DNA of 18,165 nt, taken from positions 1 through 18,165 of the forward strand of contig JANPJS010000080.1 in NCBI GenBank assembly GCA_031425655.1, read 5' to 3'. Shown here piece after piece: positions 255 through 18,144 of the stretch (within the stretch, counting starts at the first letter, position 1; each line of letters opens with the position of its first letter). The stretch comes from Abditibacteriaceae bacterium (GTDB lineage Bacteria; Armatimonadota; Abditibacteriia; Abditibacteriales; Abditibacteriaceae). The notes below the pieces were generated by a model. It was not told the DNA's origin. It made no database searches and worked only from the letters and a program-made list of their open reading frames with translations. A program made the translations under genes and the position numbers.

Positions 255-1025
255 ATGACTTGGAATTTAGCGGAACAAACGTATAAAACGGTGCGCGCCG
301 AACACTACGAAGTCGCGGTTTTGGCGATTGGCGCGTGCGAGCCGCACAATTTTCATTTGCCTTATGGAACCGACACTTTGCAGGCCGACGGCATCGCCAA
401 TCGCGTTTGTCAAAGCGCATCGGCGCAGGGCGCAAAAGTCGTCAAGCTGCCGACGATTCCTTACGGCGTGCAAAGCAATATGCGCGCGTTGCCGCTTGCC
501 ATCAACGTTTATCCGTCCACGTTTTTCGCGCTATTGAAAGACATCGTAGATTCGCTGGAAAATTCGGGCATTCGCAAACTGCTAATTCTCAACGGGCACG
601 GCGGCAACGATTTTCTCAAGCCTTTCGTGCGCGAAATGATGGGCAAAAGCGCGGTTTTTATTGCGGTAAGCGATTGGTGGAAAGTCGGCGCCGACGTTTA
701 CGACGAAGTGTTCGATGTCCGCGACGACCACGCCGGCGAAATGGAAACGAGTGTGATTTTGGCGCTGCGGCCCGATTTGGTAGATTTGGAAAACGCCTCC
801 GACGGCGCGACAATTCCAACGCGCTTCCCCGCGATCAATAAAGGCTACGTCAGCATTTCGCGCGAATGGCATTTGCTGACCGAAAGCACCGGCACCGCCG
901 ATCCGCGCGCGGCGACAGCGGAAAAAGGCGAAGCGTATCTGCAAATTGTCGTTGAACGTCTGGCGCGCTTCGTGACGGAATTATCGGCGGCGAAAATGGA
1001 TGGCAGCTTTCCCTTTACGTTTTAA
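255..1025 (+). CDS. Creatininase / creatinine amidohydrolase family protein (256 aa)
   Basis: Family motifs are present in order: GACEPHNFHLPYGTD (ExHxxHLPxGTD), NGHGGN, DHAGEMETS and the C-terminal ADPRAATAEKGE. The true substrate cannot be inferred from sequence. Confidence 0.93.
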   Translation: MTWNLAEQTYKTVRAEHYEVAVLAIGACEPHNFHLPYGTDTLQADGIANRVCQSASAQGAKVVKLPTIPYGVQSNMRALPLAINVYPSTFFALLKDIVDSLENSGIRKLLILNGHGGNDFLKPFVREMMGKSAVFIAVSDWWKVGADVYDEVFDVRDDHAGEMETSVILALRPDLVDLENASDGATIPTRFPAINKGYVSISREWHLLTESTGTADPRAATAEKGEAYLQIVVERLARFVTELSAAKMDGSFPFTF

Positions 1026-1133
1026 TTCTTGCTTTGTTAATCCATAACTTGGAAATTCTGTGAGTTTTGAGTGTCGGAGACGTTTTAAGGCCGCGCTTTA
1101 TCTTGACTTTAATAACATGATGCCACTACGACC

Positions 1134-1142
1134 TGTTATAAT
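1134..1142 (+). promoter_or_regulatory. Putative extended -10 sigma70 promoter (TGnTATAAT) for the defence-like operon
   Basis: TGTTATAAT at 1134-1142 is a perfect extended -10 element. It lies in an AT-rich spacer 27 nt upstream of the ATG at 1170. There is no -35 at canonical spacing (TTGACT at 1103-1108 is 28 nt away). Confidence 0.6.
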
Positions 1143-1169
1143 TTGGAAAATTCTTCGTTTTGGTGCTTC

Positions 1170-4100
1170 ATGGAAATCGCGGAATCGCTGGAAGAACCTC
1201 TCTTGCCGCAGCAGGACGCGCCATCGCCGCATGACCGGCGTTTGGGCGAGTGGCTGGGCCATTTAGACGATGAGATTTTCGCGTTGCGCGAAGCCGCTCA
1301 GCACATCGCTGCGCTCTTGAATGCCTCCGGCTCGCTCGATGCCGAATCGCTATCGCACGCTCAGAACGCTTTATCGGTGAAACTCGGCGCTGTCGCTCAC
1401 AGCGCGCGATGCGGCGAGCAATTGGCCGCAACCGCCTTGCAAAACAACGGTTTGCCGCCGCTGATTGACGAAAAATTGCGAATCGAGGCGCGACATTTGG
1501 GCGCGCAGCCGTTTTTAGCAAAAGCCTCGACACGCGATCCGCGACTGGCGCCGCTTTTCGCGCCCTTTGGCGAAATCAGCGATGCCGCCGTGCTGTTTCA
1601 ACAGCTCGGCGAGTGCATTGATGATCCGGCGCGCGAAGACTGGCCTCCGCATCTGCGCGCACTACGCCGCCAAATCGAAATTCTCGCTTCGCGCTCTCTT
1701 GAAGACGAATTGGCGGCGCTGATTTTTCCGATATGGGGCCGGCATCCAACCATCGGCGACACCGGGCGCGCGATGGTGGCTCGCTATTTAGGCTGGGATG
1801 GACTGGGCGGCGCGACCTTGGAAAAAGCCGGCGACTTAGGCGGTGTCAGCCGCGCGCGCGTTTCTCAACTCACAGTGTCGCTCGAAGAAGAATGGCAAGA
1901 TTGCACGCTTTATGCGCCGGCTTTGGATCGCGCGCTGCGTTATGTCCGCGAAGTTTTACCAGCGCCCGCCGCAGAAGTGGAAAACCAATTGGCGCTGCAC
2001 GGTGTTGCGCTGCGGCCTTTTCGAGTCGAAGGACTGCTGCAAGCCGCACGAGTTTTGAAGCGCGATTGCCCGTGGCGAATCATTAAGTTGCCGCTCGGCG
2101 ATGCAGAAAACCAGACGGCGCGCTGGGTTTGCGCCGCGCAGCACGCCGAAATGCTGCCGAATTTTTTGAATAATGCGCGCCGTCTGGCCCGCAAAAACGG
2201 CTGCGTGCGATTGGCCGAACTCCATGACGAAGCGGACGCTGCATCCGGCGAAGTTACGTCCGGCGAAGCCGTTACGCGCGCCGTAAATGCGGCCTTGCTG
2301 CGCGTTTTAGTGGCGATGCCGGGCTTTGTCTGGCTCGATGCGCGCGAAAGCTGTTTTTGGTTTGGCCCCACCGCCGATAATCGTCTGGTGCGCGCCGCGC
2401 AAAAACTGCTGGCCGTCGCGGGGCAATTGGAAACGCGCCGCCTGCACGAATTGCTGCTGCGCGCCGCGCAAAACGATGCGCGCGAAGTGGCGCCGCCCCA
2501 CCTTGAGATTTTTGAACGCATCTCCGCCGTTTTGCCGGGCGCCCGCTTGGAAAACGGCGTGTTACACGCGACGGATTTGCCGCCGCTTGGCGAACTGTGC
2601 GGCAGCTTCGAGCAAACCCTGATTGCGATTTTGCGTGAACACGGCCCGGTTTTATCGCGCCAGCGATTGCAGCAGTTCAGCGCGGCGCGCGGCCTCAATC
2701 TCAGCACGCTCGATGTGCAAATTGCCACTTCGATTTTAGTTGAGCGCCCGGCGCGCGGCTGGGTGGCTCTGCTCGGCACGGACGTAGATTTAAGCGCGCT
2801 CGATGGTGCGAATCAGGAGAGCGCCGCTGCCGCGCGCGAACGCTGGGCCGAAAATGCGCAAAGTGTCTGGCAAAACGGCGGGCAAACCGAGGAGCCGGGC
2901 CAAAACGCACCACCGGCAACGGGCGATGATTTGTTTGCGGGAATAGACGCGCAGAGCGGCGAGGCTCTTGAAAAAGCGGTGGCGGCGCTTTTAGCGCGAG
3001 CGCGGCACCATGATTTGCTGCCGAAAGACGGCGGCAATGCCCTGTCTAAAGCGCGTTGGTCGCTGGCTGAAGTGCAGGCATCGCCCGCCGATTACCTGTG
3101 GTTGCAGGAATGGATGCGCCATGCGCGCCCACAGCAGGTGCGGCATTGGCTGCGCGGCGACAATTTGCAGCGTCAGGCGGCCATTGGCCTTGTGCTTTTG
3201 CTGTTTTGCTGCGAAACCGCGCGCCGCGAAGCGCGCGGCGATGCGCTGTGGCCGGTTTTGGCGCGCTGGCCGATGCGCGCCGATACGCGCGCGGTTTTGT
3301 GGGCCAACAATCAGCCGTCGCGCGTGTTCAAAGACGCGCTCGAAGCCGCCGCGCAAACCTTTCATTTGCGCCACGTTTTCGGCGTGACCGGCTTGCAAAA
3401 CTGGTTCGACAGCATTCGTTTGCAGTTCGGATTTTCGCTGCCCGGACTGCGCGCTCGTCTGGGCGACTGGCTGGCCGGTGCCGGCTGGCCGCACGCCGTG
3501 GAAACTCTGCTCGAAGGCCCGCAGAAAAGCGCGAGCTTCGTCGAAATGTGGGAGAATCTGCGGCTTTTTCGGCGCAATCATATCAGCGAAGAGCGTTTGC
3601 GCGCCGCGCTGCGCGACAATCCGTGGGTGCTCTGCGAATGGCACGACGAATTGCTGGAATCGCTGCGCGTTTTGCGCGATACCGAGCGCGCCGCCAGCGC
3701 GCCGCTTGCGGGCGACAAACTGCCGTCGCGTGCCGAAAGCGAAGCGCCCGCTTCGTTTGTCAAAGGCCCGTTTCTTGAATGGGACAGCGCCCTGCCGCAC
3801 TGGCGTTTTGAAATCGCCGCGCTGGATGATTTCGACTTGCCCGGCGCGCATTATCAAATCGTGGAGCGCGGCCAGATCGTCGCCGATTTGTGGCGGCGTG
3901 CCGATGGCGGCTTTGACGGGCCAGAGCAGTTTTATTTGCCTCTGGCGCCGCAAAATCAACTGCTTTTGCGCGATGCCGCCGACAACACGGTCGCGCACAG
4001 TGTTTTGCTCGAAGGCTGGCAAAGCGACGAAGACGTAGCGGCCTTTTCGCTGCCCGATGGCCGCGCGTTTGAAGCGTGGCGCCGCCCCTTGGAAACGCGG

Positions 4101-5873
4101 CGCGACTTTGCTTTGCTGACCGCCGCCGATTTGCGCGTGGAGCCGGCGCCTGATGATTCGCTGCCGCTGCCGGGTGGACGCTTAGTTTTGCACCGCTTAC
4201 CGGCAGGACGCGATGCAACGCCGCGCGTCTGGCTCGAAGACGAGGTTTTGTGGCCGCCCGCCGATGGAAATCAGGCTGCGCGTGCCCAAACGCCGAGTGC
4301 CGGCGTTTTCGCTTTTTTCGAGCCGGGGGCCGCGATTCGGCCCGGCCAGAGCGCGCCGCTTTTGTTGCGCCACAACGCCGCCACGCGCGTGCTTTATCTG
4401 CGACAGGACGGCGGCCCGGTGGATTTTGAAAACGGCGAAACTTTGACGCACGCCCGCCCCAATATCCCAGAAAGCGGGCCGCATCCATGGAAAATCGTGC
4501 TGCGCGCCGGATTGGTCGTGACGCAGGCCGATGACAGCCAGACGCGGCGCACTGTTCGCCTCGAAATCGCCTTGCCGCAGGGCGGCGCCTTTCATTTCAG
4601 CGGCGGCGTATGGAAGCCGCTGAGCAACGGGATTTTGCAAACCCGCACGGCGAGCGCCGTCCGGTTTTTGATTCATCCGCCCGCCACCGATGCGCCCGAA
4701 TCGTGGCGCGATTGGGCTTTGATGGAAGGCGATAGTTTTGTGCGCCGCTTGTCGCCCGTAGCCGCGCCGCTGAAGGATTTGAGCGGTTGGGGCGAGCCTC
4801 TTACGCTGCGGCGCGGGCCGTATAATGCTCTCGAAGCCGACCTGCCAATTTCCTCTGCCGTAATTGATCAGGGCTTGCTGAAAAAAGCCTCGTTTGAGAG
4901 CGAAGGCGATGCGAGGCGCATCGAAATTTATCTGGCGCACCCGATTGAGCCGGATGCCGCTCATCGTTTGCTGTGGTGGGACGGCGAAACCGTGCAGGCT
5001 TTGCCGGTCGAGGCCGACGCCGAAGATAAGGCTCTGTGGCGTGCGCCGTTTCCGCAGAACACGACGCGCCTGCTGGCATTGGCCTTGTCTTATGAGGGCG
5101 CGCGGTTGGGCGCGCTGTGGAACGATAAATGGAGCCGCGTTCTGCTTGCCGGCAAGCAGAACGCGGCGCAGGCGCGCGAAACGGCGGCGCTCTTGCGCTG
5201 GTTCAAACTGCCGTTGCTGGACGCGGCGCATTTGCCATCCGTGCGCGATTGGGCCGCGCGTTTTCCCGGCGCGTTTTTGGAAGTCTGGCTGCGTGAGGCC
5301 GCGCCGATTTCTCTGAAAAATCTGCCGTTCTGCCTTGTGCCGGGCGAGGAAAACGATATGGCGCGGGTGATTGCCGCTGTTTTCGCCGAATGGAAGCCAA
5401 ACCCCGCCGAAGCCGCTGCGGTTGCCGCGCTTTTGGCGCCCGATGCGCCTTCTCCTGCCGAGGCGTTGGGGCAATCGCTGGCCGATTTGCGCCGCGCTGC
5501 GCCAGCTTTGATGGCATCCGTAGCTGCCGCGTGGCTCCAAGAGCCGCCCGAAGCTCTGAGTTTTTCGCAGCGTTGCGCGTTGCTGGATGAATGGAAAAAT
5601 GCTCTGGGCGCGGCGCCGGGCGATGAAAATTCGCAATTGGCCGAATGCGCCCTTGCCATGCGCTGCGATGAGTTTTTTGTGCGCGGCGTGCTCGATAACG
5701 CGGTCAGGGTCTGGCAGGGCCAGCCGCACGCGACGGCGTGTGGCGCGCGGAATTTGGCTTTGGCGGTTTCGCTTCAGCCGTTTCGTTTGCTGTTGGCGCG
5801 GCGCTTGTTGCGGGAAATCGCCCTCCAATTGGACGCCGCACAGCGCAAAGCCGAGCGCGCCGCGTGGCGTTGA
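1170..5873 (+). CDS. Large protein (1567 aa): N-terminal sigma70-region-4-like HTH and winged-helix-like region fused to a DruH/STY4851-like region; probable defence-helicase partner
   Basis: One long ORF. ATG 1170 is preferred over TTG 1143, which directly abuts the -10 element. HTH motif RAMVARYLGWDGLGGATLEKAGDLGGVSRARVSQL at 1767-1871. Polar linker at about 2790-2980. Then WSLAEVQASPADYLWL...LLLFCCETARRE...LWPVL...HLRHVFG...NWFDSIRLQFGF (3057-3440), which resembles my recollection of the DruH/STY4851 N-terminal domain. The ORF ends 37 nt before the DUF1998 helicase gene. The CDS is secure; the DruH assignment is inference. Confidence 0.75.
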   Translation: MEIAESLEEPLLPQQDAPSPHDRRLGEWLGHLDDEIFALREAAQHIAALLNASGSLDAESLSHAQNALSVKLGAVAHSARCGEQLAATALQNNGLPPLIDEKLRIEARHLGAQPFLAKASTRDPRLAPLFAPFGEISDAAVLFQQLGECIDDPAREDWPPHLRALRRQIEILASRSLEDELAALIFPIWGRHPTIGDTGRAMVARYLGWDGLGGATLEKAGDLGGVSRARVSQLTVSLEEEWQDCTLYAPALDRALRYVREVLPAPAAEVENQLALHGVALRPFRVEGLLQAARVLKRDCPWRIIKLPLGDAENQTARWVCAAQHAEMLPNFLNNARRLARKNGCVRLAELHDEADAASGEVTSGEAVTRAVNAALLRVLVAMPGFVWLDARESCFWFGPTADNRLVRAAQKLLAVAGQLETRRLHELLLRAAQNDAREVAPPHLEIFERISAVLPGARLENGVLHATDLPPLGELCGSFEQTLIAILREHGPVLSRQRLQQFSAARGLNLSTLDVQIATSILVERPARGWVALLGTDVDLSALDGANQESAAAARERWAENAQSVWQNGGQTEEPGQNAPPATGDDLFAGIDAQSGEALEKAVAALLARARHHDLLPKDGGNALSKARWSLAEVQASPADYLWLQEWMRHARPQQVRHWLRGDNLQRQAAIGLVLLLFCCETARREARGDALWPVLARWPMRADTRAVLWANNQPSRVFKDALEAAAQTFHLRHVFGVTGLQNWFDSIRLQFGFSLPGLRARLGDWLAGAGWPHAVETLLEGPQKSASFVEMWENLRLFRRNHISEERLRAALRDNPWVLCEWHDELLESLRVLRDTERAASAPLAGDKLPSRAESEAPASFVKGPFLEWDSALPHWRFEIAALDDFDLPGAHYQIVERGQIVADLWRRADGGFDGPEQFYLPLAPQNQLLLRDAADNTVAHSVLLEGWQSDEDVAAFSLPDGRAFEAWRRPLETRRDFALLTAADLRVEPAPDDSLPLPGGRLVLHRLPAGRDATPRVWLEDEVLWPPADGNQAARAQTPSAGVFAFFEPGAAIRPGQSAPLLLRHNAATRVLYLRQDGGPVDFENGETLTHARPNIPESGPHPWKIVLRAGLVVTQADDSQTRRTVRLEIALPQGGAFHFSGGVWKPLSNGILQTRTASAVRFLIHPPATDAPESWRDWALMEGDSFVRRLSPVAAPLKDLSGWGEPLTLRRGPYNALEADLPISSAVIDQGLLKKASFESEGDARRIEIYLAHPIEPDAAHRLLWWDGETVQALPVEADAEDKALWRAPFPQNTTRLLALALSYEGARLGALWNDKWSRVLLAGKQNAAQARETAALLRWFKLPLLDAAHLPSVRDWAARFPGAFLEVWLREAAPISLKNLPFCLVPGEENDMARVIAAVFAEWKPNPAEAAAVAALLAPDAPSPAEALGQSLADLRRAAPALMASVAAAWLQEPPEALSFSQRCALLDEWKNALGAAPGDENSQLAECALAMRCDEFFVRGVLDNAVRVWQGQPHATACGARNLALAVSLQPFRLLLARRLLREIALQLDAAQRKAERAAWR

Positions 5874-5910: not shown

Positions 5911-8900
5911 ATGTCCCAACTCGATGCGATAGCGTTGTCCGCCGCTGTTCAGAGGCGCCTGGTGGATTTTGCCGGCGAAGCGCACTACACGCGCAACACG
6001 CACTTAGCCGCGATTTGTCGCCGTTTGTGGAGCGGCGCGCCCGCCGAAGGCGGATTAGTCAGCGATTTGTGGGTTGAAGGCGCGTTTCCGGCGCAAAGCG
6101 GCGACGAAACGCTGCAAACGCTGGCCGCGCGCGGGCTTTTCGACGCTTCGCTGGCCGCGCATTTAGATGCGCGCGGCGCGGTTCCCAAGGGACGTGCGCT
6201 CTACACGCATCAAAGCGCCGCGATTATTCAGGCGCGCCACACGCCAAACCATCACAAGCCGGCCTTAGTCGTAACGGCGGGAACCGGCGCCGGCAAAACC
6301 GAAAGTTTTCTGCTGCCGGTTTTGGATGCGCTGTGGAGCGAGCCGCCCAGCGAAAAAGCAGGCGTGCGCTGCCTGATTTTGTATCCGATGAACGCCTTAG
6401 TCAACGATCAGGTTGACCGGCTTTACGGTTGGATGCGCGGCCAGAATCGGCTGAGTTTGTTTCATTTCACCAGCGAAACGCCCGAAGACAAACGCGCCGC
6501 TGACCGCGACGGCGTGCCGGAATGGGACGCCTGCCGCTTCCGCACCCGCAAAGAGGCCCGCGCCGGTGTGCCGGATATTCTTATCACCAACTATTCGATG
6601 CTCGAATATATGCTGTGCCGTCCGCAGGACACGCCGTTTTTCGGGCCAAACCTCAGCGCCGTAGTGTTGGACGAAGCGCATCTTTACACCGGGACTTTGG
6701 CGGCGGAAATGACGCTGCTTTTGCGGCGTTTATTGCGGCGCTGCGGCAAGGAAGCGCACGAAATCCTGACCCTTGCGACTTCGGCGACCATCGGCAGCGG
6801 CGCGCCCGGCGAACTCGAAAATTTCGCGGCCACGCTGTTTTCGCGGCGTGCCTCACAGGTGCAGGTGATTCGCGGCGAACGGGCGCGCCCGCTTCTCGAA
6901 AGCGCGCAGGCGCCGTCGCAAACGCCGGTTGCGGCCAACCTTGCCGCTCTGCAATGGCTTCAGGCGCCGACGCTGCAAATTGCCGCCGACGGCGCCACGC
7001 ATTTGGCCGAAAATCGCGCCGAATGCGCGCGATTGGCGCATCAACTGCCGCTTTTAGTGGCGCCCAGCGTCGTCGAAGCGGCTTTGGCGGCTTGCGAAAA
7101 TCGCCCGGCTGTTTTGCTGCAAAAAACGCTGTGCGCCGCGCCGCTCACGCACGCTCTGGAAAACGCTTTGTGGAACGAGCCGCGCCGCGCTTTGGGTGAT
7201 TTAGCGCGCGAGATTTGGCCGGAGCAAGCGGAAAACGAAGGCCAAAGCGCGATTCGCGCGACTCTTGCGCTGTTGCAAATGGGCGCGGCGGCACGCGGCG
7301 CGGCGGGCGATTATCCGCTGCTGCCGCATCGCATTCATTTGCTGGCCCGCGCGCCCGAAGGCCTGACTTTGTGCCTGAACGCCGATTGCACGGCGCCCGC
7401 CGACTTGAAAATGCCGAGTTTTGGCGCTGTCGCGGCGGGCGGCGGTGGGCGTTGCGCCGTTTGCGCGCACGCCACGCTGTCGCTGTTTCACTGCGCCAAT
7501 TGCGGCGAATGGGCGCTTGGCGCCAACGACGACGGTCTACGCCTGATTCCGGCCTATCGAGAGCAAGGCGGCGAAGGCGAAACGTTGTTTTTGCAGGCGC
7601 CCGGCGCGTCGTCGCTGGCGCCGCTGGTTGTGGATGCGCGCGATGCGCGGCGTTTGGCATGGGGCACGCCGGGGCTTGTGTTCGAACGCATCAGCGATTG
7701 TCCGTGTTGCGGCGCGGGCCGGGACAGTTGGCAGCCGTTCGCATCGGGCGCGGCGTTGCCGATGTCCATCGTGGCCGAAACCGCGCTCGCCGAACTGCCG
7801 CCGTATCCCGCCGCGCATCACGCGCATTTGCCGGCGCAGGGTCGGCGCCTTTTGGCTTTCAGCGACAGCCGAGGCGAAGCGGCGCGTTTGGGGCCGCGCC
7901 TGACGCGACAGCACGAAACACAGTTGGGCCGCGCCGCGACTCTGCGCTGTCTGGAAAATTCGCCGGCTTCGGATGAGGAAACTCTGGAATTCTGGCGTGG
8001 CGAAGTGCGAACGCTGGAAGCGCGCCTGAGCCATGCGCCGCCGTCGCCGGCTTTGCGCCAGACCTTGCAAAACCAACTCGACGAGGCGCGTTTGCAACTG
8101 CAAGCGCAGCACGGCGGCGGCTCGATGCGCGATTGGGCGAGGCTTCTCGAAAGCGAACCGCTGTTGCATCAGTTTTTCGATTTCGACGGGGCCGGCGAGC
8201 ATCAAGCCGCGACGTGGACGCCGCAAAAATGGGAGGAAAATTTCGCGCGCGTCAGCCGTCACGCTTTGCTGCTTTTGGCCGGGGAACTGAGTGTTGGCAC
8301 GCGGCGGCGGATGTCGCTGGAAAGCCTCGGTCTGGCCGAAGTGACTTATCCCGGATTGGAAAACGCCGTCGCACCCGCCGCGCTTTTGGGCACGCTGCCC
8401 GATGCTGCTTTGCGCGACGGATTGAGCGCAGTTTGGCCGGACTTCTTGGCCGCGCTTTGCGATACGCTGCGCTTGGACGGCGTGTGGACTTTGGGCAGCG
8501 CCGAAGAAGACATGGCATATCCGGCGGGGCGGCAGCTTTTGGGTTATTGGGTGGTGAAAAATCAGCCGCCCGCCCCTTATTTCGCGCGTTTTACCGGCGA
8601 TTCGCTGCGCCAAAGGCGCCGCCGCTTTGCTTTCAACGTGCTGCAAAATGTGGCGCCTTGCGACAACGCCGAGGCACTCTCGGAAATCGTTTTAAACGCC
8701 GCCTTCGATCAACTTTTGAGCAGCGCCGAAACACAGTGGCCGTGGCTGGAAGGCGGCGAACGCTCTGCGGCTTTGAAGAGCACGCCCGGCCTGCGCCTGC
8801 GTTTTCCCGACCTCGGTTTGCGCCGTCCGCAGCGGCTTTTTCGCTGTCCGACGACCGGCCATGTCTGGCCGCGCAGCGTGGCCGGCTGCGCGCCCGAAGC

Positions 8901-11169
8901 CGGCTGCCGCCATTTGCAGCCGATTGACGCTGTCGCACTAAACGACGACCCGCGCCGCGCCCGCTTGCGCCGCGAATTGGCCGAATCGCCGGTTTTCGCG
9001 CTCGGATTGTGGGCCGAAGAGCATTCGGCGCAGCTTGCGCCTGCGGAAAATCGGCGCTTGCAGGACTTGTTCAAAGCTGGCGTTCGCAACGTATTATCAT
9101 CAACGACCACGCTGGAACTCGGCATTGACATCGGCGGGCTGAGCGCGGTTCTGATGGGCAACGTGCCGCCCGGCAAAGCCAATTATCTGCAACGCGCCGG
9201 ACGCGCCGGTCGCCGCGCCGACGGCTCATCGGTTGTGATAACGTTCGCGCGTCCCAACCCGTTCGACCGCGCGGTTTTCGCGCGGTTCGGCGATTACATG
9301 AAGCGCGATTTGCGGCGCCCTGTGGTGTTTCTCGACCGCGCCCGCGTGGTGCGGCGTCATGCTCATGCGCTGCTGCTCGGCGAATTCTTTCGCCAGCTTT
9401 ACGGCCCCGCTGCCGAAACCGGCGCCATGCGCGCTTTTGGCAATATGGGCGAATTTTGCGGCGTGCCTTTGCCGCCTAAATGGGACAGAGGCGCCAAGCC
9501 AGCCCTCGATGCACCCGCAGCGCCGGTTCACGAGCAGTTCGTCAATTTCCTGCGCGCCTTGCAAAATCATCACGATACGGCGCTGCACGAATCGCTGCGC
9601 GCGGTTTTGCGCGGCACCAAGCTGCAAAACGAACCCGACGACTGGACGCGCTTTTTCGGCGACACCATCGCGCAGTTTGAAGACGCGCTCGCCACTTGGC
9701 GAAGCGACTACGACGAGCTTTTGGCGGCGTGGCAGGAAATCGAAAACGCGCCCGCGCAGGCCAATGCGCTGCGTTATCAAATGGCGGCGCTGTGGGAAAT
9801 GACGGTCATTGAGGCTTTCGCCGACCGCCAGTTTTTGCCGCGCTACGGCTTTCCCATCGGCGTGCAAAAGCTGCGCGTGATTACTTTTGACGACGACAAA
9901 AAACGCTTGCGCGAAGAAGACCAGTTTCGGCTTGAACGGCCCGGCTTGCTGGCTTTGCGCGAATACGTGCCCGGCTCGCAGCTTTTGGCCGGCGGGCGCC
10001 TGATTACTTCGCGCGGCTTGCTCAAGCACTGGACAGGCGCTGCGCTGGACAATTATTTGGGTGTGCAGGGCCGTTATACAAAATGCCTGAATGGGCATTT
10101 TTTCTATGCGCTCAGCGGCGAACTCGGCGCGTGCCCGGTGTGCGGGGAAGCGGCAGGCGCGGGGCGCCATTTATTGTTGCCGCGCCACGGATTTTCCAGC
10201 GCCGCGTGGGATCCGCCACGCCACAGCACCGATGTCGAGCGGGTCGGCAGCGTCGAGCAGGCGACGATTACTTTCAGCCGCAGCCACAGCAGCGAAATGA
10301 TCGAAGACGATTTTGCCGAAATTTCCGGCCTGCGCGCTCGATACCGCGAAGACGGCGAACTGCTGGTTTACAACGACGGCGAATTCAATTGCGGCTTCGC
10401 CATCTGCACCAAATGCGGCTACGCCGACAGCGAAAAACGCATGGCGCAGGGCGCTATGCACTTGCCTTCCACTTTCGCCGTCCACGCGCGGCTAACTTCC
10501 AAGCATCGCCGCGACAAGTGCTGGAACAGTGGTGAGACTTTTGTTTTGCGAAACCGCACTTTAGCCGCCAGCGAAACCACCGACGCGCTGATGCTGGATT
10601 TTTCGGCGAGTCTTGGCGATTATGCCGATTCCGCCGCGCTGTTGGAAACTTTGGGCCGCGCTCTGCAAGTGGCGGGCGCCCGCTGCCTCGAATTGGATGG
10701 CCGCGAAATCAGCGTTCTCACGGTTCCGGCGGGTGTGGCCGGGCAAAGTTTGGGCGTGGTGCTGCTGGACAACGTGCCGGGCGGCGCCGGCCATGTGCGC
10801 GAACTGCTGGGCGTGGGCCGTTTGTGGCTCGAAGCCGCGCGCGAGGCGCTTTTCGTGGACGCGGCGCATCACGCGCGCTGCGAAACCGCCTGCATTGACT
10901 GCCTACTCACCTTCGACGCGCAAACCGCCATGAGTCAGGGTTTGCTGTCGCGCCGCTTCGCGCACGACGTTTTAGAAGCCTTGCTCGGCAGCGCGCCTTT
11001 GCCTCTCGCGCCGCACGCTGCGAGAGCGCGGCGCACCATCGTAAGCGGCGCCGAGCCATCGCTTTTCGAGCCGGAAAGTCCGCCGGCTGATCCTGTGGCG
11101 CCTGTGGCCGCGCTTTCGGTTGCGGAGCGCCGTGCCCGCGCCGCGCGCCGCCGCCCCAACTCGCAGTAG
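5911..11169 (+). CDS. druE: DEAD/DEAH-box SF2 helicase with C-terminal DUF1998 domain, Druantia DruE-like (1752 aa)
   Basis: ATG 5911 follows AGGA (5901-5904) and avoids overlap with the upstream gene. Motifs: Q-motif LYTHQ, Walker A AGTGAGKTES (about 6277-6306), Ia LYPMNALVNDQ, Ib TNYSMLEYML, II LDEAH (6667-6681), III TSAT, IV-like LLAFSDSR, EEHSAQ, V STTTLELGIDIG, VI QRAGRAGRR (about 9190-9216), FLPRYGFP. DUF1998 signature DNVPGGAGHV...CETACIDCLL (10768-10908). The helicase and DUF1998 calls are secure; the druE symbol is inferred from size, architecture and partner. Confidence 0.85.
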   Translation: MSQLDAIALSAAVQRRLVDFAGEAHYTRNTHLAAICRRLWSGAPAEGGLVSDLWVEGAFPAQSGDETLQTLAARGLFDASLAAHLDARGAVPKGRALYTHQSAAIIQARHTPNHHKPALVVTAGTGAGKTESFLLPVLDALWSEPPSEKAGVRCLILYPMNALVNDQVDRLYGWMRGQNRLSLFHFTSETPEDKRAADRDGVPEWDACRFRTRKEARAGVPDILITNYSMLEYMLCRPQDTPFFGPNLSAVVLDEAHLYTGTLAAEMTLLLRRLLRRCGKEAHEILTLATSATIGSGAPGELENFAATLFSRRASQVQVIRGERARPLLESAQAPSQTPVAANLAALQWLQAPTLQIAADGATHLAENRAECARLAHQLPLLVAPSVVEAALAACENRPAVLLQKTLCAAPLTHALENALWNEPRRALGDLAREIWPEQAENEGQSAIRATLALLQMGAAARGAAGDYPLLPHRIHLLARAPEGLTLCLNADCTAPADLKMPSFGAVAAGGGGRCAVCAHATLSLFHCANCGEWALGANDDGLRLIPAYREQGGEGETLFLQAPGASSLAPLVVDARDARRLAWGTPGLVFERISDCPCCGAGRDSWQPFASGAALPMSIVAETALAELPPYPAAHHAHLPAQGRRLLAFSDSRGEAARLGPRLTRQHETQLGRAATLRCLENSPASDEETLEFWRGEVRTLEARLSHAPPSPALRQTLQNQLDEARLQLQAQHGGGSMRDWARLLESEPLLHQFFDFDGAGEHQAATWTPQKWEENFARVSRHALLLLAGELSVGTRRRMSLESLGLAEVTYPGLENAVAPAALLGTLPDAALRDGLSAVWPDFLAALCDTLRLDGVWTLGSAEEDMAYPAGRQLLGYWVVKNQPPAPYFARFTGDSLRQRRRRFAFNVLQNVAPCDNAEALSEIVLNAAFDQLLSSAETQWPWLEGGERSAALKSTPGLRLRFPDLGLRRPQRLFRCPTTGHVWPRSVAGCAPEAGCRHLQPIDAVALNDDPRRARLRRELAESPVFALGLWAEEHSAQLAPAENRRLQDLFKAGVRNVLSSTTTLELGIDIGGLSAVLMGNVPPGKANYLQRAGRAGRRADGSSVVITFARPNPFDRAVFARFGDYMKRDLRRPVVFLDRARVVRRHAHALLLGEFFRQLYGPAAETGAMRAFGNMGEFCGVPLPPKWDRGAKPALDAPAAPVHEQFVNFLRALQNHHDTALHESLRAVLRGTKLQNEPDDWTRFFGDTIAQFEDALATWRSDYDELLAAWQEIENAPAQANALRYQMAALWEMTVIEAFADRQFLPRYGFPIGVQKLRVITFDDDKKRLREEDQFRLERPGLLALREYVPGSQLLAGGRLITSRGLLKHWTGAALDNYLGVQGRYTKCLNGHFFYALSGELGACPVCGEAAGAGRHLLLPRHGFSSAAWDPPRHSTDVERVGSVEQATITFSRSHSSEMIEDDFAEISGLRARYREDGELLVYNDGEFNCGFAICTKCGYADSEKRMAQGAMHLPSTFAVHARLTSKHRRDKCWNSGETFVLRNRTLAASETTDALMLDFSASLGDYADSAALLETLGRALQVAGARCLELDGREISVLTVPAGVAGQSLGVVLLDNVPGGAGHVRELLGVGRLWLEAAREALFVDAAHHARCETACIDCLLTFDAQTAMSQGLLSRRFAHDVLEALLGSAPLPLAPHAARARRTIVSGAEPSLFEPESPPADPVAPVAALSVAERRARAARRRPNSQ

Positions 11170-11188: not shown

Positions 11189-11287
11189 TTAAACACAAAG
11201 GACACAAAGTTCGCACACAGACACAGAGATTCCTCTTTTGCCGTTCTTTGTGTTCTTTTGTCCAACCTTTGTGTCTTTTGTGTTGAA
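11189..11287. repeat. ACACAAAG/CTTTGTGT-type palindromic repeat, copy 2 (about 99 bp)
   Basis: Left arm 11189-11209 TTAAACACAAAGGACACAAAG pairs with right arm 11267-11287 CTTTGTGTCTTTTGTGTTGAA (19/21). Internal degenerate ACACAGA and CTTTGTGT units are present. Confidence 0.8.
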
Positions 11288-11305: not shown

Positions 11306-12076
11306 ATGCAATTTATCGAAAATGAAGTGAAAGAAATCGGGCCGGGCGTATGGATTCGCGTGGCCATTGACAACATCGCGTGGGCCGATTTGGGCGATGG
11401 CGTTGCCGTTATTGACGCGCTCGAAGACCCGGCGCAGGCCGACGTGGTGCGAAATCTCATTAAGCAAACCACGGGGCGCGATTTGAAATGGGTGGTGACC
11501 ACGCACTGGGACACCGATCACATCGCGTGCAATCCGCAGTGGCGGCGCGAAGGCGCGCCGGTCATCGCGCATCAATCGTGCGCCGATTCCGCCGCCGATT
11601 GGGAAGGCCGCCCCGATATTTCGTATGCCGACAACGCGGTTTTGCGCGGCGCCACCGAACGCATCGAAATGCAATGGCTCGGCGGCACGCACACGCCGTG
11701 GGACACCATTTTGTATTTTCCCGGCGCCCGCGTGCTGCATATCGCCGATTTATTCGGCTGGGGCTTGATTCCGTGCAAACCGACGCCGGAAAAAGTGGCG
11801 CGCTTGTGGGAAGTGCTGAATCGCGTGGTCGAATTCGAGGCCGACGCGGTGATTTGCGGCCACGGCCCGGTCACGACTTTGGCGCATATTCGCCGCTTTA
11901 TGGCCTATTTCGACGAGCTTTTAAAACAAGTGCCGCCGCTTGTGGCCGAGGGCAAATCGCTGGACGAAATCGAAGCCGCTGTGCCGCCACCCGATGACAT
12001 GAGCGATTGGTGGCGCTTCGTGGCTTGGAAGCACAAAAAGAATCTGGAAATGATCGCGGCGGATTACAGCGCTTAA
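11306..12076 (+). CDS. Metallo-beta-lactamase-fold hydrolase (cyclase/glyoxalase II-like), 256 aa
   Basis: ATG 11306 follows the SD-like GAAGGA (11294-11299). Motifs: VAVID, VVTTHWDTDH (HxHxDH variant), VIAH, GGTHTPWD, LHIADL, ICGHG. The longer ORF-track start (11120) runs through the helicase 3' end and the repeat. Confidence 0.9.
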   Translation: MQFIENEVKEIGPGVWIRVAIDNIAWADLGDGVAVIDALEDPAQADVVRNLIKQTTGRDLKWVVTTHWDTDHIACNPQWRREGAPVIAHQSCADSAADWEGRPDISYADNAVLRGATERIEMQWLGGTHTPWDTILYFPGARVLHIADLFGWGLIPCKPTPEKVARLWEVLNRVVEFEADAVICGHGPVTTLAHIRRFMAYFDELLKQVPPLVAEGKSLDEIEAAVPPPDDMSDWWRFVAWKHKKNLEMIAADYSA

Positions 12077-12307: not shown

Positions 12308-15300
12308 CTACTGGCTTGGCTCGTCGTCCTCGAAAAGCAGCGCCGCTGCGTCGTCGTTGCGAATGGTGCCGATACCCAGGCCATCGGCGAGGAAGGCGAA
12401 AGTCGGTTTGCTCAGGGCGACTTTGTAAGTCTCGTTCGGCTCAACTGTCGAGTCGCCTTTGACCAAAATTGTGATGGTTTTGCTGGTTTCGCCCGGTGCG
12501 AATGTGAGAGTGCCCGAAGCCGCCACGTAATCGCTTGCCACGGCGGTGCTGTCGGCGGTCGTCCAATCTACCGTGACGGTGTCAGTCGAAGCCGCCGAAA
12601 GCGTCACGGTGAAGATTTGGGATGTCGTGCCGCCGTCGCCTTCGTTAATGGTGAGCGCGTTGGCGATGGTAATGCCTGGCCCATCGTCGTTGTTGATCTG
12701 GCCCACACCACGATTGTCGGCAATCGTCGCATTCGTCGGCGTCTTGAGATCGAAGAAGAAGGTTTCATTGAGTTCGACCGCGCTGTCGCCGATGAACTGA
12801 ATCGTCACGCGCTTGAGAGTCTCGCCCGGCGCAAAGGTCAGCTTGCCACTTTTAGCTGTGTAATCGCTGCCGGCGAGGGCCGGATTATTGATGCCATTGG
12901 CCGTTTGATAATTAACCGTCACGCTTTGCGTGCTGGCCGTAGTGAGCGTGATGTCGAAGGTGACCGAACCGGGCGAGGGTGCGCTGCCTTCGGGAAGTGA
13001 ACGCGGGTTATTGACGGCGATTCTGATGTCATCGTCGGTAATGGTGCCCACGCCCTGCGCGTCGGCAATGGTTGCGCCGTTGGGATTGCTCAGGTTTACG
13101 ACGAAGGTTTCGTTGGGTTCGCCTGCTGTGTCGCCAATGATTGGCACAACGATAGTCGCGCTGAGTTGTCCTGCCGGGATGGTTACCGTGCCGCCGGCGG
13201 CAGTGTAATCGCTGGCCGCCGTCGCCGTGCCGTTAGCCGTGGCATAGGTCACTGTGACAGATTGCGTGCTGGTCTTGGACAAGCTCACTGTGAACGTGAG
13301 GTTGCTACTGCCGCTATTGCCCTCGGCTTTTGATACGTCGTTAATGGAAATCGTGGGAAGCACAGTGAAGGTGCCGGTGCTGGTGGCAGTGCCGCCGGGC
13401 GTGGTGACGCTGATTTTGCCGGTGGTCGCGTTGGTAGGCACCGCTACGGTAATCTGCACTGAGGAATTAACGGTAAACGCCGGCGCGCTGACGCCGTTGA
13501 ATTTCACTCCCGTCGCGTTGCTGAAATTGACGCCCTCAATGACGACACTGGTGCCCGCGCCGCCGCTGGTCGGGCTGAAACTGAAAATCACCGGCGCGGG
13601 CACCACGGTGTAGCTATTGGTGCTGGTGGCGGTTCCGCCCGGTGTCGTGACGCTAATTTTGCCGGTTGTCGCACCGGCAGGCACCGTTACGGTGATTTGC
13701 GTGGGCGAATTGACTACGAAATCGGCGCTGGTCTGGTTGATGCGCACATCGGTCGCGCCGGTGAAGTTGGTGCCGGTGATGACCACGCTGTCGCCGACCT
13801 TGCCGCTGGCCGGCGCAAAACTGGTAATCGTCGGCGCCACAAGAGGCACTGTGAAGTTGCTGGCGCTGATGGCTGTGCCGTTCGGCGTGGTGACGCTGAT
13901 TGGGCCGGTGGTCGCGCCTGCCGGCACCGTCGCGGTTATGGTCGTGGCAGAGTTGACGGTGAAAGTGGCCGTAGTGCCGTTGAATTTCACCGAATTGGCG
14001 CCGGTGAAGTTGGTGCCGGTAATCGTCACCGTGGTGCCGGCAGCGCCGCTCGTCGGCGTGAAACTGGTGATTTTCGGAAAAGCGGTGCTGGTCGCCGTAA
14101 GATCAACGCTGGTGGCGGTGTAACTGACGGCGAAACCGGGAGCGCTGACCGTGGCAAAAGTGCTGCTGCCGCGTGCGCCGGAAGCGAAAGTCACCACCGA
14201 AAAGACCGCGCCGCTTGCCGGTTGGAACGGGCTAATCAGACTGGCGTTGAGCCGGCCTCCGAGCGCGACGGGCGTGTTCAGTCGCAGTTGATCGAAGCCA
14301 CTGCCCGCCGTTGCGCCGCCAATCTGGATGTTGAGAATTCCCGTAGAAGTCTGGGTAAAAGGAACGAAAATGCCCGGAGTGCTGGATGCTCCCAGATTCA
14401 GCGTTTTTTTGTTGTTGAACTGCTGACCTGTGCCGCCGTTGAAAGCTGCCCAGCCTGCGTTAGGCATCGCCGTAAAGGTGCCGTTGTTGTTGAAAACACT
14501 GTCGGTCAGCGCCGTAATGTTGCCGGCGAGCCAGTTCGTGGTGCCGTTAGCGTTGATGGTGCCGCTGAGAGCGCCGCCGGATAATGTTAGGCCGCCGGTG
14601 ATGGTGCCTCCGCCCGCCACGGTCGTGAGCGTGCCGCCGAACAGTTCGAGTTTGCCGCCGCTTTGTCCACCGACGATGCTGCCGCTGATGCTCACCGTCG
14701 CCTGAATCTGGCTGCTGCCCGCGCCGGTGAACTTAGCCCCACCGGTCAGGATGTGCGTATTGCCATTGAAGCGCACGAATGCACCGCTGCTGCAATTGAA
14801 GGTGCCGGTGCTGGTGCCGTCTGAGATGCCCAAAATGCCCGCAAGCACGTTCACTGTGCCGCTGTTCTTGAAGTTGGCGCCGCCGCCGAACTGAGAATAT
14901 TCCGTGGTCGTGCCGCTGGCGTTGAGGGTGCCGATGTTGTTGAACTGCTGACCCGTTCCGCCGTTGAAGGCCGCCCATATCGCGTTGGCCGTCGTCGTAA
15001 ACGTGCCGTTGTTGTTGAAAATTGAGTCCGTGAACACCGTTATGTTGCCGCCGAGCCAGTTCGTGGTGCCGTTGGCGTTGATAGTGCCGGACAGCCCGCC
15101 GCCGGATAATGTTAGGCCGCCAGTGATGGTGCCACCGCCTGCTACGGTCGTGAGAGTGCCGCCGAACAGTTCGAGTTTGCCGCCGCTTTGTCCACCGACG
15201 ATGCTTCCACTGATACTCACCGTCGCCTGAATCTGGCTGCTGCCCGCGCCGGTGAACTTAGCGCCGCCGGTCAAGGTGTGCGTATTGCCATTGAAGCGCA

Positions 15301-16477
15301 CGAAAGCGCCGCTGCTGCAATTGAAGGTGCCGGTGCTGGTGCCGTCCGAGATGCCCAAAAGGCCCGTAAGCACGTTCACTGTGCCGCTGTTCTTGAAGTT
15401 GGCGCCGCCGCCGAACTGAGAAAACTCTGTGGTCGTGCCGCTGGCGTTGAGAGTGCCGATATTGTTGAATTGCTGGCCTGTTCCGCCACTGAAAGCCGCC
15501 CACGTCGCGTTCGCCGTCGCCGTAAAGGTGCCGTTGTTGTTGAATATTGAGTCCGTGAACACCGTAATGTTGCCGCCGAGCCAGTTGGTGGTGCCGTTGG
15601 CGTTAAACTTGCCGGACAGCCCGCCGCCGGATAATGTCAAACCGCCGGTGATCGTGCCGCCCGCCGCAACAGTCGTGAGCGTGCCGCCGAACAGTTCGAG
15701 TTTGCCGCCGCTTTGTCCACCGACGATGCTTCCACTGATACTCACCGTCGCCTGAATCTGGCTGCTGCCCGCGCCGGTGAACTTAGCGCCGCCAGTGAGC
15801 GTGTGCGTATTGCCATTGAAGCGCACGAAAGCGCCGCTGCTGCAATTGAAGGTGCCGGTGCTGGTGCCGTCTGAGATGCCCAAAATGCCCGCAAGCACGT
15901 TCACAGTGCCGCTGTTCTTGAAGTTGGCGCCGCCGCCGAACTGAGAATACTCTGTGGTCGTGCCGCTGGCGTTGAGGGTGCCGATATTGTTGAACTGCTG
16001 GCCTGTTCCGCCACTGAAAGCCGCCCACGTCGCGTTCGCCGTCGCCGTAAACGTGCCGTTGTTGTTGAAAATTGCGTCCGTGAACACCGTAATGCTGCCG
16101 CCATTGCTGGGCCAATTTACGGTGCCGTTGTTATTGACGGTGCAACCCAGCCCGCCTGTGGTGAATGTTGAAGTGCCGCTGAGAGTCAGTGCTCCCGAAC
16201 TCCCAACGACGGTGCCGCCGTTCAGATTCAGGGTGGCAATCGTCACGCTGGTGTTGCCTAAGTCGGCGGTGCCGAAATTGATATTAGCGACATCGCCGCC
16301 GCCGGGCACAGTTCCGGCGGGGCCGCCGCTCCAGTTTCCGGGAGTAAACCAGTTGCTTGAAACGGCCTGAGTCCACGTATAAGTGGCAGCGTGGGCATGA
16401 GCGGGAATCAGACAAAGGGCGCCAAGCAGAATGATGGCAAGCCGGCGCCGAAGCGCGAGTTTCCTGAGAGATAACAT
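12308..16477 (-). CDS. Large secreted/surface protein (1389 aa): signal peptide, Gly/Asn/Thr-rich beta-helix-like repeats, 3 IPT/TIG domains, 3 Calx-beta domains; adhesin-like
   Basis: SD AGGAG (16484-16488, minus strand). Signal peptide MLSLRKLALRRRLAIILLGALCLIPAHAHA|A. Three IPT/TIG starts: PKITSFTPTSGAAGTTVTITGTNF, PTITSFAPASGKVG and PVIFSFSPTSGGAG (about 14080-13360). Three Calx-beta units, e.g. ISINDVSKAEGNSG...TANGTATAASDY...DTAGEPNETF...GTITDDD (about 13357-12345). Confidence 0.92.
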   Translation of the reverse strand: MLSLRKLALRRRLAIILLGALCLIPAHAHAATYTWTQAVSSNWFTPGNWSGGPAGTVPGGGDVANINFGTADLGNTSVTIATLNLNGGTVVGSSGALTLSGTSTFTTGGLGCTVNNNGTVNWPSNGGSITVFTDAIFNNNGTFTATANATWAAFSGGTGQQFNNIGTLNASGTTTEYSQFGGGANFKNSGTVNVLAGILGISDGTSTGTFNCSSGAFVRFNGNTHTLTGGAKFTGAGSSQIQATVSISGSIVGGQSGGKLELFGGTLTTVAAGGTITGGLTLSGGGLSGKFNANGTTNWLGGNITVFTDSIFNNNGTFTATANATWAAFSGGTGQQFNNIGTLNASGTTTEFSQFGGGANFKNSGTVNVLTGLLGISDGTSTGTFNCSSGAFVRFNGNTHTLTGGAKFTGAGSSQIQATVSISGSIVGGQSGGKLELFGGTLTTVAGGGTITGGLTLSGGGLSGTINANGTTNWLGGNITVFTDSIFNNNGTFTTTANAIWAAFNGGTGQQFNNIGTLNASGTTTEYSQFGGGANFKNSGTVNVLAGILGISDGTSTGTFNCSSGAFVRFNGNTHILTGGAKFTGAGSSQIQATVSISGSIVGGQSGGKLELFGGTLTTVAGGGTITGGLTLSGGALSGTINANGTTNWLAGNITALTDSVFNNNGTFTAMPNAGWAAFNGGTGQQFNNKKTLNLGASSTPGIFVPFTQTSTGILNIQIGGATAGSGFDQLRLNTPVALGGRLNASLISPFQPASGAVFSVVTFASGARGSSTFATVSAPGFAVSYTATSVDLTATSTAFPKITSFTPTSGAAGTTVTITGTNFTGANSVKFNGTTATFTVNSATTITATVPAGATTGPISVTTPNGTAISASNFTVPLVAPTITSFAPASGKVGDSVVITGTNFTGATDVRINQTSADFVVNSPTQITVTVPAGATTGKISVTTPGGTATSTNSYTVVPAPVIFSFSPTSGGAGTSVVIEGVNFSNATGVKFNGVSAPAFTVNSSVQITVAVPTNATTGKISVTTPGGTATSTGTFTVLPTISINDVSKAEGNSGSSNLTFTVSLSKTSTQSVTVTYATANGTATAASDYTAAGGTVTIPAGQLSATIVVPIIGDTAGEPNETFVVNLSNPNGATIADAQGVGTITDDDIRIAVNNPRSLPEGSAPSPGSVTFDITLTTASTQSVTVNYQTANGINNPALAGSDYTAKSGKLTFAPGETLKRVTIQFIGDSAVELNETFFFDLKTPTNATIADNRGVGQINNDDGPGITIANALTINEGDGGTTSQIFTVTLSAASTDTVTVDWTTADSTAVASDYVAASGTLTFAPGETSKTITILVKGDSTVEPNETYKVALSKPTFAFLADGLGIGTIRNDDAAALLFEDDEPSQ
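14400..16100 (-). repeat. Intragenic tandem repeat, 525-bp (175-aa) unit, three copies plus a partial fourth
   Basis: The anchor ACTTAGC recurs at 14731, 15256 and 15781, exactly 525 nt apart. The near-identical protein unit ITVFTDxIFNNNGTFT...QQFNNIGTLNASGTTTE...KLELFGGTLTTVA...NANGTTNWL occurs three times. Boundaries are approximate. Confidence 0.95.
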
Positions 16478-17092: not shown

Positions 17093-17148
17093 GCGCCGAT
17101 TTGAACCGCCGAACTTTAACGAAGCCGCGCGGCTCCAACAAGAAAACC

Positions 17149-18144
17149 ATGAAACAACTTCTCATTCCCGCACTGGCGCTGCTTTTTGGCAGCGCGGCGC
17201 ACGCGCAGAATCCGCAAATCGGGCTGCCGGACGCCGGTAAAGTCGAACTGAAACTGCGCTGGCTCGCCGGCAAAAGCTATCTGGTGAAAACGACCAGCGT
17301 GCAGAAGATTTCGCAAATGATTGAGGAAAAGCCTCTCGTGGTAGATCAAACGCTGGGCTTCAGTTACGTTTATGCGGTGCGCGGTGTGGACGCGCAGGGC
17401 GCGGCGACCGTGGACATCACTTTCCGCGACGTGTTCTTCAAAATGGTGGTGCCGGGCAAAGAAACGCCGGTCACTATCGAATACGATTCAACCAAGCCCA
17501 TAAAAGAAATTCCGCCGTCCATGAGCGGCGTCGCATCGCTGGTCGGGCAAAAAGTGTGGATAAAAATTGCGCCCGATGGCCGCACAGTTGAAGCCGGCGG
17601 TTTTAAAGAATTGCTCAAACACATGATAAAAAGCATCAGCGTGCCGCCCGGCGCCGAGCGCACCGTGATGGAAAACACGCTCAAAGGCCAGTTCAGCGAA
17701 GAATCTTTCCGCGAAATGCTGCAACAAGGCACCGCCAGCAATTATCCCAAGCATCCGGTCGCGGTCGGCGAGTCGTGGACGAGCGACATAAAACTCACGC
17801 AGAATATGCCGATGCAGCTCGTCTCCACTTTTACGCTTAAGGAGCGCAAAGACGGCTTTTCGCTGATCGGCCTTGAAGGCACGCTGGCTTTGGATTCCAA
17901 AGGCAAACCGATGATGGCGGCAGACTCGAAAATCGTGATGCAATTGCAGGGCAAGCAAAGCGGCACCATGCAAATCCGCGAATCCGACGGCTGGATTATA
18001 AAGTCACAGACCAAACTCGATTTTGCGGGCACTGTCGGCGTTTCCACAACGCCGGGCGGCCCCGGCGATTTACGGCGTCCCACCAATAAATCGTGGCCGA
18101 TTTCGATTCGCGGCACGACGACTGTGGAATCGGAAGATTTGTAG
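17149..18144 (+). CDS. Secreted protein, DUF6263-like (331 aa)
   Basis: Starting at ATG 17149 gives a clean signal peptide MKQLLIPALALLFGSAAHA|Q. The pattern LKLRWLAGKSY...YDS...IAPDGRTVEAGG...YPKHPVAVGESW...GTMQIRESDGWI resembles DUF6263 proteins as I recall them. Confidence 0.75.
   Translation: MKQLLIPALALLFGSAAHAQNPQIGLPDAGKVELKLRWLAGKSYLVKTTSVQKISQMIEEKPLVVDQTLGFSYVYAVRGVDAQGAATVDITFRDVFFKMVVPGKETPVTIEYDSTKPIKEIPPSMSGVASLVGQKVWIKIAPDGRTVEAGGFKELLKHMIKSISVPPGAERTVMENTLKGQFSEESFREMLQQGTASNYPKHPVAVGESWTSDIKLTQNMPMQLVSTFTLKERKDGFSLIGLEGTLALDSKGKPMMAADSKIVMQLQGKQSGTMQIRESDGWIIKSQTKLDFAGTVGVSTTPGGPGDLRRPTNKSWPISIRGTTTVESEDL

Follow-up and report, generated by a model that had tools for sequence, protein, structure and literature searches.

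Among described defence systems, those closest to the locus reported here belong to Druantia III. In the available text of the papers that describe them, DruH is built of a helical head, Ig-like domains and a helical tail (10.64898/2026.05.12.722862 section 9; 10.64898/2026.05.13.724313), and distant DruH proteins bind ssDNA or forks (10.64898/2026.05.12.722862; 10.64898/2026.05.13.724313). DruH contacts DruE via its C-terminal domain, and its N-domain is mobile and unresolved in the complex (10.64898/2026.05.13.724313). Subtype III-B has been defined as having a DruE without PLD (10.64898/2026.05.13.724758). The triggers described for Druantia III are DNA structures (10.64898/2026.05.13.724758; 10.64898/2026.05.12.722862; 10.64898/2026.05.13.724313), and since a phage tail protein is reported to activate one Druantia III (PMC13316683), protein sensing is not foreign to these systems. 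How Druantia III tells phage from host DNA is debated, and DruH is described as having no annotated domains.

The stretch of DNA analysed here (the window) comprises 18,165 nucleotides of contig JANPJS010000080.1 from an Abditibacteriaceae bacterium. On its forward strand it contains a gene of 1567 aa (1170–5873) in which a sigma70 region 4-like (sigma4) and winged-helix (WH) module, a linker and a DruH-like partner follow one another in a single frame, and a DruE-type helicase gene directly downstream.

The partner and helicase genes

As originally predicted, the frame runs from the helix-turn-helix (HTH) and WH module into the DruH-like region without a stop (1170–5873, on an uninterrupted contig); a TTG at 1143 on the same strand is an alternative start. 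The junction at 2790–2980, where confirmation had been sought, is spanned by a separately assembled Logan contig that covers window positions 900–5169 with one differing letter and no gaps, although, as the run behind it could be that of the source sample itself, this contig does not represent an independent organism. The junction between module and DruH is present in other genomes too, and together with the Logan contig this rules out an assembly artefact or a one-off readthrough. The polar linker (aa 541–600; 2790–2969, forward strand) occupies the place of an EcoRII-N/B3-like domain found at the C-terminus of the family to which the module belongs.

The helicase gene (5911–11169, forward strand; 1751–1752 aa) starts 37 nt after the stop of the partner gene, with an AGGA at 5901. 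Its product is a DruE-type SF2 helicase with an MZB (DUF1998) domain that matches PADLOC DruE3 at E 5e-218 and falls in the DruE3 clade, as the DruE of a Druantia III does, and one large partner gene lies directly upstream of it, which is the Druantia III layout. No family match to a PLD domain was found in this DruE, in which the match to DruE3 stops at aa 1691 of ~1751; a DruE without C-terminal PLD domains characterises Druantia III-B.

The DruH-like part of the partner (967 aa; 2970–5873, forward strand) matched no curated model (Pfam, PADLOC DruH), and neither did eight relatives of the partner match PADLOC DruH; as a positive control, E. coli DruH matches 10 PADLOC DruH models. The structure model of this part (pLDDT 87.5) has a helical head, Ig-like beta domains in tandem and a helical tail. 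Comparison of the partner with eight proteobacterial DruH proteins by hhalign gave a weak likeness in the head only (E 0.004, probability 8%, 116 columns). Fold searches with the model returned Ig-like matches and no DruH chain among the rows listed, and a PDB sequence search with the DruH profile returned nothing useful. Word-index searches, an insensitive method, gave one relative for aa 600–1567, two weak long matches, no loci for the DruH part alone and nothing for aa 1–560. Position and predicted architecture mark the partner as a putative DruH, the sequence link being weak. To judge from its genes, the locus most likely functions as a compact, PLD-less two-gene system of the Druantia III (III-B) kind.

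Palindromic REP-like elements lie on both sides of the region (1–81, 148–236 and 11189–11287), and 16-base pieces of them recur 19, 2 and 10 times in the genome. The flanking genes encode a creatininase-family hydrolase (255–1025), a metallo-beta-lactamase-fold hydrolase (11306–12076), a DUF6263 protein (17101–18144) and, on the reverse strand (12308–16477), a secreted-looking protein of 1389 aa in which a Gly/Thr-rich repeat of ~190 aa occurs in three near-identical copies, alongside repeated Ig-like units that are IPT/TIG- and Calx-beta-like by eye. Neither an integrase nor a further defence gene was seen among the flanking genes, and the cassette therefore stands alone.

The N-terminal module and its family

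The fusion protein begins with a helical region (aa 20–175; 1227–1694, forward strand), modelled at low to medium confidence, which is partly common to L096, a free-standing homologue from the same bacterial family, and in which our own profiles detected no alpha-CTD. The sigma70 region 4-like HTH follows (aa 176–245; 1695–1904, forward strand), identified by profiles and in the AF2 model. The segment RAMVARYLGWDGLGGATLEKAGDLGGVSRARVSQL, on which the HTH was first recognised, is at aa 200–234 (nt 1767–1871), and the segment EQTL...ALLG, proposed as a winged helix, is at aa 481–536 (nt 2610–2777), both where they had been placed. Pfam Sigma70_r4 matches the window protein on its own weakly (aa 203–235; E 0.037, 14 bits, cut-off 24.1); the sigma4 profile of the family matches the window at E 7e-16, and the family profile (140 sequences) matches solved SigA/RpoD region 4 at E ~1e-13, which, with AF2 helices at 196–243, confirms the assignment. 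Sigma region 2, which had been reported missing, is indeed absent: Sigma70_r2 was unmatched in the fusion protein at E up to 1 and the AF2 model contains no such domain, and a true sigma factor is thereby ruled out.

The AF2 model of the module (pLDDT 83.7) comprises the sigma4 helices and four alpha/beta units, and the sigma4 fold is kept with pLDDT >90 at aa 200–245. The hydrophobic core positions of sigma4 are retained. The recognition helix reads SRARVSQ in the window vs TRERVRQ in the family, E229 and R232 now being A and S, so that the window copy has no intact -35 recognition helix (TRERxRQ) and, with two base-reading residues changed, probably has little sequence preference.

Three of the alpha/beta units, all on the forward strand, are matched structurally by winged helices: WH2 (aa 326–400, 2145–2369; model range 327–400, Z up to 8.1), WH3 (aa 401–476, 2370–2597; model range 400–477, Z up to 8.3) and WH4 (aa 477–540, 2598–2789; matched over 478–536, Z 8.9, rmsd 1.4 A, 58 residues). 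Overall these matches have VIA Z 8.1–8.9 and rmsd 1.4–2.5 A over 58–71 residues, a Z near 8 being modest. WH1 (aa 246–325; 1905–2144, forward strand) is a probable winged helix, judged by the order of its secondary-structure elements in the AF2 model (helix-strand-helix-helix-hairpin); its profile has a weak likeness to WH4 (E 0.002, probability 14%), and no winged-helix structural match to it was present among the 50 rows listed. The winged helices that had been suspected are thus real, three by structural match and a fourth as likely, and the predicted structure contains both HTH and winged-helix folds. Foldseek with the module gave nothing under E 0.001, the top rows being tandem WH proteins, and a PDB sequence search with the whole fusion protein gave nothing useful. 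As modelled, the module is one sigma4 HTH followed by about four winged helices, a genuine add-on to the DruH-like partner.

When aa 1–560 served as query against 1.84 billion representatives, 1130 proteins matched at E ≤0.001, 574 of them at ≤1e-10. Among the best 149 of the 1130 (query excluded), the homology spans aa ~100–545 at 27–36% identity, with E down to 2e-40; the median length is 706 aa, and four of the 149 exceed 1000 aa. The sole DruH-fused protein among these 149 is P0141 (1671 aa; DruH-like part E 1e-64), and the other 148 have no DruH, which is the Rosetta-stone pattern that had been suggested, with the module mostly free-standing. Sigma70_r4 is present in 48 of the 50 members of this set that were scanned against Pfam, an alpha-CTD in 112 of the 149 by our own profiles, and a characteristic C-terminal domain in 126 of the 149. 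The family profile matches RNAP alpha-CTD (E ~1e-11). The nearest named look-alikes of the C-terminal domain are EcoRII-N domains (score 0.86, a lead only), and a PDB sequence search with this domain gave nothing useful.

There are several features that define the family and the position of the window copy within it. First, the -35-reading helix is nearly invariant (R 133, E 132, R 135, R 131 and Q 136; n=139). Second, the family goes straight from the recognition helix into WH1, the last sigma70 helix not being kept. Third, its internal identity is ~30%, and outside the HTH it does not resemble the sigma4 of the host itself. Finally, the window copy, which matches the family profile at E 1e-102 (a profile that includes the query), is homologous over sigma4 and the WH array, but is without the alpha-CTD and the C-terminal domain. 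The window module belongs to a large alpha-CTD/sigma4/WH family, of which it is a truncated and fast-evolving representative. Within the phylum of the window the module was found, at E up to 1e-20, in four of 301 genomes (G000 included).

A single motif scan, and hence a biased sample, supplied nine loci with a free-standing module, which in six lies directly 3′ of a GHKL ATPase gene. In five of the nine the gene order is a conserved 210-aa gene, the GHKL (HATPase_c_3) ATPase and the module; in the sixth the GHKL tail is within the same open frame as the module. MzaB is likewise a MutL/GHKL ATPase, a parallel to this neighbour. The three-gene operon (L081:1696-6201, L084:654-5287, L086:2372-7511, L088:6673-10900 and L089:7138-11698) spans five phyla with ATPases that are 57–69% identical, its 210-aa protein has no Pfam or PADLOC match, and the operon is a candidate for an undescribed defence system. 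Elsewhere, a viperin-model match (L096:11196-12227, E 6e-18) directly follows a free-standing module in G125, and an MzaA-like ORF (L097:2009-3016, E 5e-53) lies ~11 kb from one in G170.

Other fusions of the module are seen in P0142, where it is joined to helicase-associated (HA) repeats, in P0156 and in P0157, which has an unassigned tail of 1200 aa beyond the module. The N-terminal stretch of P0156 presumably resembles, by eye, a phosphorothioate-binding wH domain. Profiles gave no support for P0157 as a further DruH fusion.

Recurrence and origin of the fusion

A query with DruE yielded at least 580 confirmed stretches, the best 80 of which were used for locus counts. A DruH-like ORF lies directly upstream of DruE in 78 of these 80, and the remaining two have <650 bases upstream. 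In six of these best 80 loci the DruH-like ORF contains a sigma4 that is in frame and scores above the cut-off of Pfam: L004, L013, L021 (Latescibacterota; the fusion in L021 is split over two ORFs), L025 (Planctomycetaceae), L042 and L054 (Acidobacteriota). The Pfam scan covered 17 long or extended ORFs; when all 7550 ORFs of the 80 loci were searched with a sigma4 profile, the same six came up and no free-standing neighbour. Because several of the loci are truncated on their 5′ side, six is a lower bound. Among these six, L042 and L054 alone have the same WH array as the window; the database protein P0141 also has this module fused to a DruH-like part, and an alpha-CTD was found in all three (L042, L054 and P0141). 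The fusion is not a one-off, and recurs on the same partner in unrelated bacteria.

Further long extensions occur in L026 (HhH match), L033 (no match) and L034 (Sigma70_r1_1 match). The DruH-like proteins of L033 and L034 (L033:3543-9947 and L034:5541-9944, both from Desulfuromonadia) have 540–1200 extra residues with a degenerate HTH by eye, and near L033 lie QatA, a gene resembling those of restriction enzymes and another resembling the C-terminal (PLD) part of DruE. A separate clade has a tandem duplication of the head domain (L001:6304-9978, L009:6287-9952, L067:6257-9952 and P0154).

About nine in ten of the related DruH proteins are without any such module. Among 60 relatives of the window's genome, two have a DruH-like gene, both unfused, and none of the three same-genus genomes (completeness 79–93%) gave a match. 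The possibility that the module is a standard part of DruH is ruled out, since characterised DruH has no HTH and the relatives are mostly module-free, and it follows that the module is dispensable. Taken together, the extensions appear to mark the N-terminus of DruH as a variable input slot for add-ons. They provide a DruH series with different N-termini (this module, other sigma4-WH modules and a duplicated head domain) that allows clean comparison by deletion or swap.

The DruH tree (74 rows, those with <700 aligned residues excluded; quick IQ-TREE, LG+G4) places the window nearest to unfused or head-duplicated proteins and apart from a supported clade of P0141, L033, L034, L042 and L054 with the 5′-cut L040. 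A single clade for all ten extended DruH rows is rejected (p-AU 2e-6), implying several gains or many losses, and the DruH proteins that bear a sigma4 do not form a single clade. The exact fusion may nevertheless have one old origin, as joint groupings are compatible with both trees: the window with P0141, L042, L054, L033, L034 and L040 as one clade on the DruH tree (p-AU 0.116), and, on the module tree (73 rows, with 60 of 148 free-standing matches used), the four fused copies held together, which outscored the free tree (p-AU 0.60). These two groupings and that of the ten extended rows were all chosen after tree inspection. The fused copies are on long branches (0.74–1.36, the window being the longest at 1.36, vs a median of 0.57 on the module tree), so long-branch attraction is possible.

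Possible roles of the module and comparison with known systems

We propose that the module is an accessory part that binds DNA and so tethers the DruH sensor to it, and give this a probability of roughly 0.5. The partner DruH would have captured, N-terminally, a truncated member of an enzyme-free family of RNAP-contact parts and winged helices, which would act as a tether on, or reader of, double-stranded DNA. The sigma4 HTH and the approximately four WH domains would hold the protein on DNA, and the DruH body, by extension from distant DruH proteins, would recognise exposed single-stranded or forked DNA. The C-terminal helical domain may then load DruE, whose 3′-5′ unwinding would block phage replication, as reported for distant systems. 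Tethering on duplex DNA would raise the chance of DruH meeting a fork or gap. With DruE bound through the C-terminus and the N-terminal domain mobile, the DruH N-terminus would be a permissive slot.

Several observations favour this reading. First, all recognised domains are predicted nucleic-acid-binding folds. Second, the nearly invariant -35-reading helix of the family appears to travel with WH arrays and the EcoRII-N-like lead domain. Third, a GHKL ATPase gene directly precedes the free-standing members in six of nine loci. Finally, each of the six sigma4 matches in the best 80 loci shares a frame with DruH, none of them being a separate neighbour. Of the second hypothesis of the original prediction, a DNA-binding or autoregulatory module, the DNA-binding half fits best, the -35 helix being kept in the family alongside WH arrays, and the autoregulatory half found no support. 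Against the tether, the losses and long branch of the window copy fit decay as well as retuning.

The first hypothesis of the original prediction, an integrated decoy, appears unlikely, and gripping DNA is the more likely role. Here sigma4 (elsewhere alpha-CTD or sigma region 1.1) would mimic RNAP surfaces attacked by hijacking and anti-sigma proteins of phages, whose binding would open DruH and trigger DruE. AsiA and MotA bind sigma4, and alpha-CTD is modified by phage enzymes. In keeping with bait, the fused extensions are RNAP parts (sigma4 in six loci, alpha-CTD in L042, L054 and P0141, Sigma70_r1_1 in L034), the window copy keeps the sigma4 fold but has changed DNA-reading residues, and fused copies evolve fast. 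However, the last sigma70 helix, which we take to be the MotA site, is not kept, WH1 following the recognition helix instead, and a family ~30% identical internally and unlike host sigma4 outside the HTH imitates the host target poorly. Bait has no need of four WH domains or an EcoRII-N-like domain, and the structural papers, in their available text, point to DNA triggers (10.64898/2026.05.13.724758; 10.64898/2026.05.12.722862; 10.64898/2026.05.13.724313). We are equally doubtful of the general form of this idea, that RNAP-part modules (alpha-CTD, sigma4, sigma1.1 and WH) are repeatedly captured plug-in sensors acting as decoys for RNAP-hijacking phage proteins. Were the decoy true, a DNA-structure-triggered helicase system would gain a second, protein-triggered input, and the lost base-reading residues of the window copy would represent specialisation as bait.

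Somewhat less credible is a decaying passenger, in which a deletion that removed its 3′ end and stop codon would have joined an adjacent free-standing gene to druH, where it is tolerated while its function fades. Decay is possible in that the window copy has lost the alpha-CTD, the C-terminal domain and two near-invariant recognition-helix residues; its branch is long, its nearest DruH relatives have no module, and the three same-genus genomes searched (completeness 79–93%) have none either. All five core units are nonetheless intact, in frame and confidently folded by AF2, and the same junction with DruH is kept in P0141, L042 and L054 at ~30% identity. Other sigma4 modules have joined DruH separately, and none of the best 80 DruE loci has a free-standing copy next to it.

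Sigma4 binds the flap tip of RNAP, and docking to the host beta-flap could bring DruH to transcription bubbles or R-loops with exposed ssDNA, an explanation that we regard as improbable. Sigma4 retains its fold and the positions of its hydrophobic core, and DruH is reported to sense ssDNA (10.64898/2026.05.12.722862), but WH1 takes the place of the C-terminal part of sigma4, and docking would entail competition with the housekeeping sigma and a risk to the host's own transcription. Least probable of all is an autoregulator that binds the druHE upstream region and controls operon expression, since, for all that HTH/WH folds head the operon behind an A+T-rich gap (1026–1170), no sigma70-like promoter was found in 900–1300 and no inverted repeat in 950–1250 (merely short two-copy direct repeats), a repressor does not need as many as five DNA-binding domains, and in the GHKL operons the free-standing gene is last, not first.

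The DNA tether thus preferred can be set against several known systems. The free-standing family shares aa ~100–545 with the window module and is enzyme-free, mostly with an alpha-CTD and the EcoRII-N-like domain; one member, P0005, is labelled by NCBI 'DNA-directed RNA polymerase subunit alpha C-terminal domain-containing protein'. Alpha-CTD/sigma4/HARE-HTH proteins are said to be mentioned by Aravind and Iyer in 2012, and the family may therefore be noted there. MzaA (PADLOC PDLC02203) is also a defence protein with a sigma4-like HTH, and its model is matched by 15 of 20 module-family members (best E 3e-6), on the HTH where the stretch is shown; it differs in that the likeness is limited to the HTH, with no WH array match, and in its operon. 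BREX type 2 PglW has an alpha-CTD-like domain and three wHTH modules, read as DNA-binding or sensory (PMC12839542), and is similar in having such a block fused into a defence protein; unlike the window protein, it carries the block on NERD nuclease/kinases and an inactive STAND, with no sigma4 described in the available text (PMC12839542). The PglW model is matched by one of 20 module-family members, and P0141 aa 114–332 matches it weakly (E 7e-4).

In the available text of the Druantia/YprA literature we found no sigma4- or alpha-CTD-fused DruH, and supplementary domain tables (YprA, BREX, Druantia) could list such fusions; the accessible parts of PMC10853773 and 10.1101/2025.09.30.679545 do not describe the module family. 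The RefSeq survey (10.64898/2026.05.12.724681 section 5), which according to its available text used PADLOC calls, would miss the partner of this clade, as those calls miss it. The locus carries a recurrent and, so far, apparently undescribed fusion in which the module is joined to a divergent partner of the Druantia III-B-like kind. It links a defence protein directly with a large, unstudied family of alpha-CTD/sigma4/WH proteins, and makes DNA reader vs RNAP decoy testable in a two-gene system.

The DruH proteins of the E. coli and P. aeruginosa III-A systems share the order N-helical, Ig-like, C-helical, with an N-domain that aligns weakly (116 columns); III-A DruH differs in its length (1119 aa) and in having no HTH module, and its DruE bears PLD domains (10.64898/2026.05.12.722862; 10.64898/2026.05.13.724313). 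The residues of its ssDNA pocket and exonuclease site have no reliably aligned counterparts in the window partner. Druantia III-B, as far as described (10.64898/2026.05.13.724758; M. smegmatis, PMC13316683), is like the window in its partner-helicase gene order, DruE3-type helicase (E 5e-218 in the window) with MZB and no PLD, and a partner predicted to consist of helical head, Ig-like domains and helical tail. In contrast to III-B, the window partner has no PADLOC DruH match and a weak profile link to proteobacterial DruH, and it carries ~600 extra N-terminal residues with the sigma4 and WH array.
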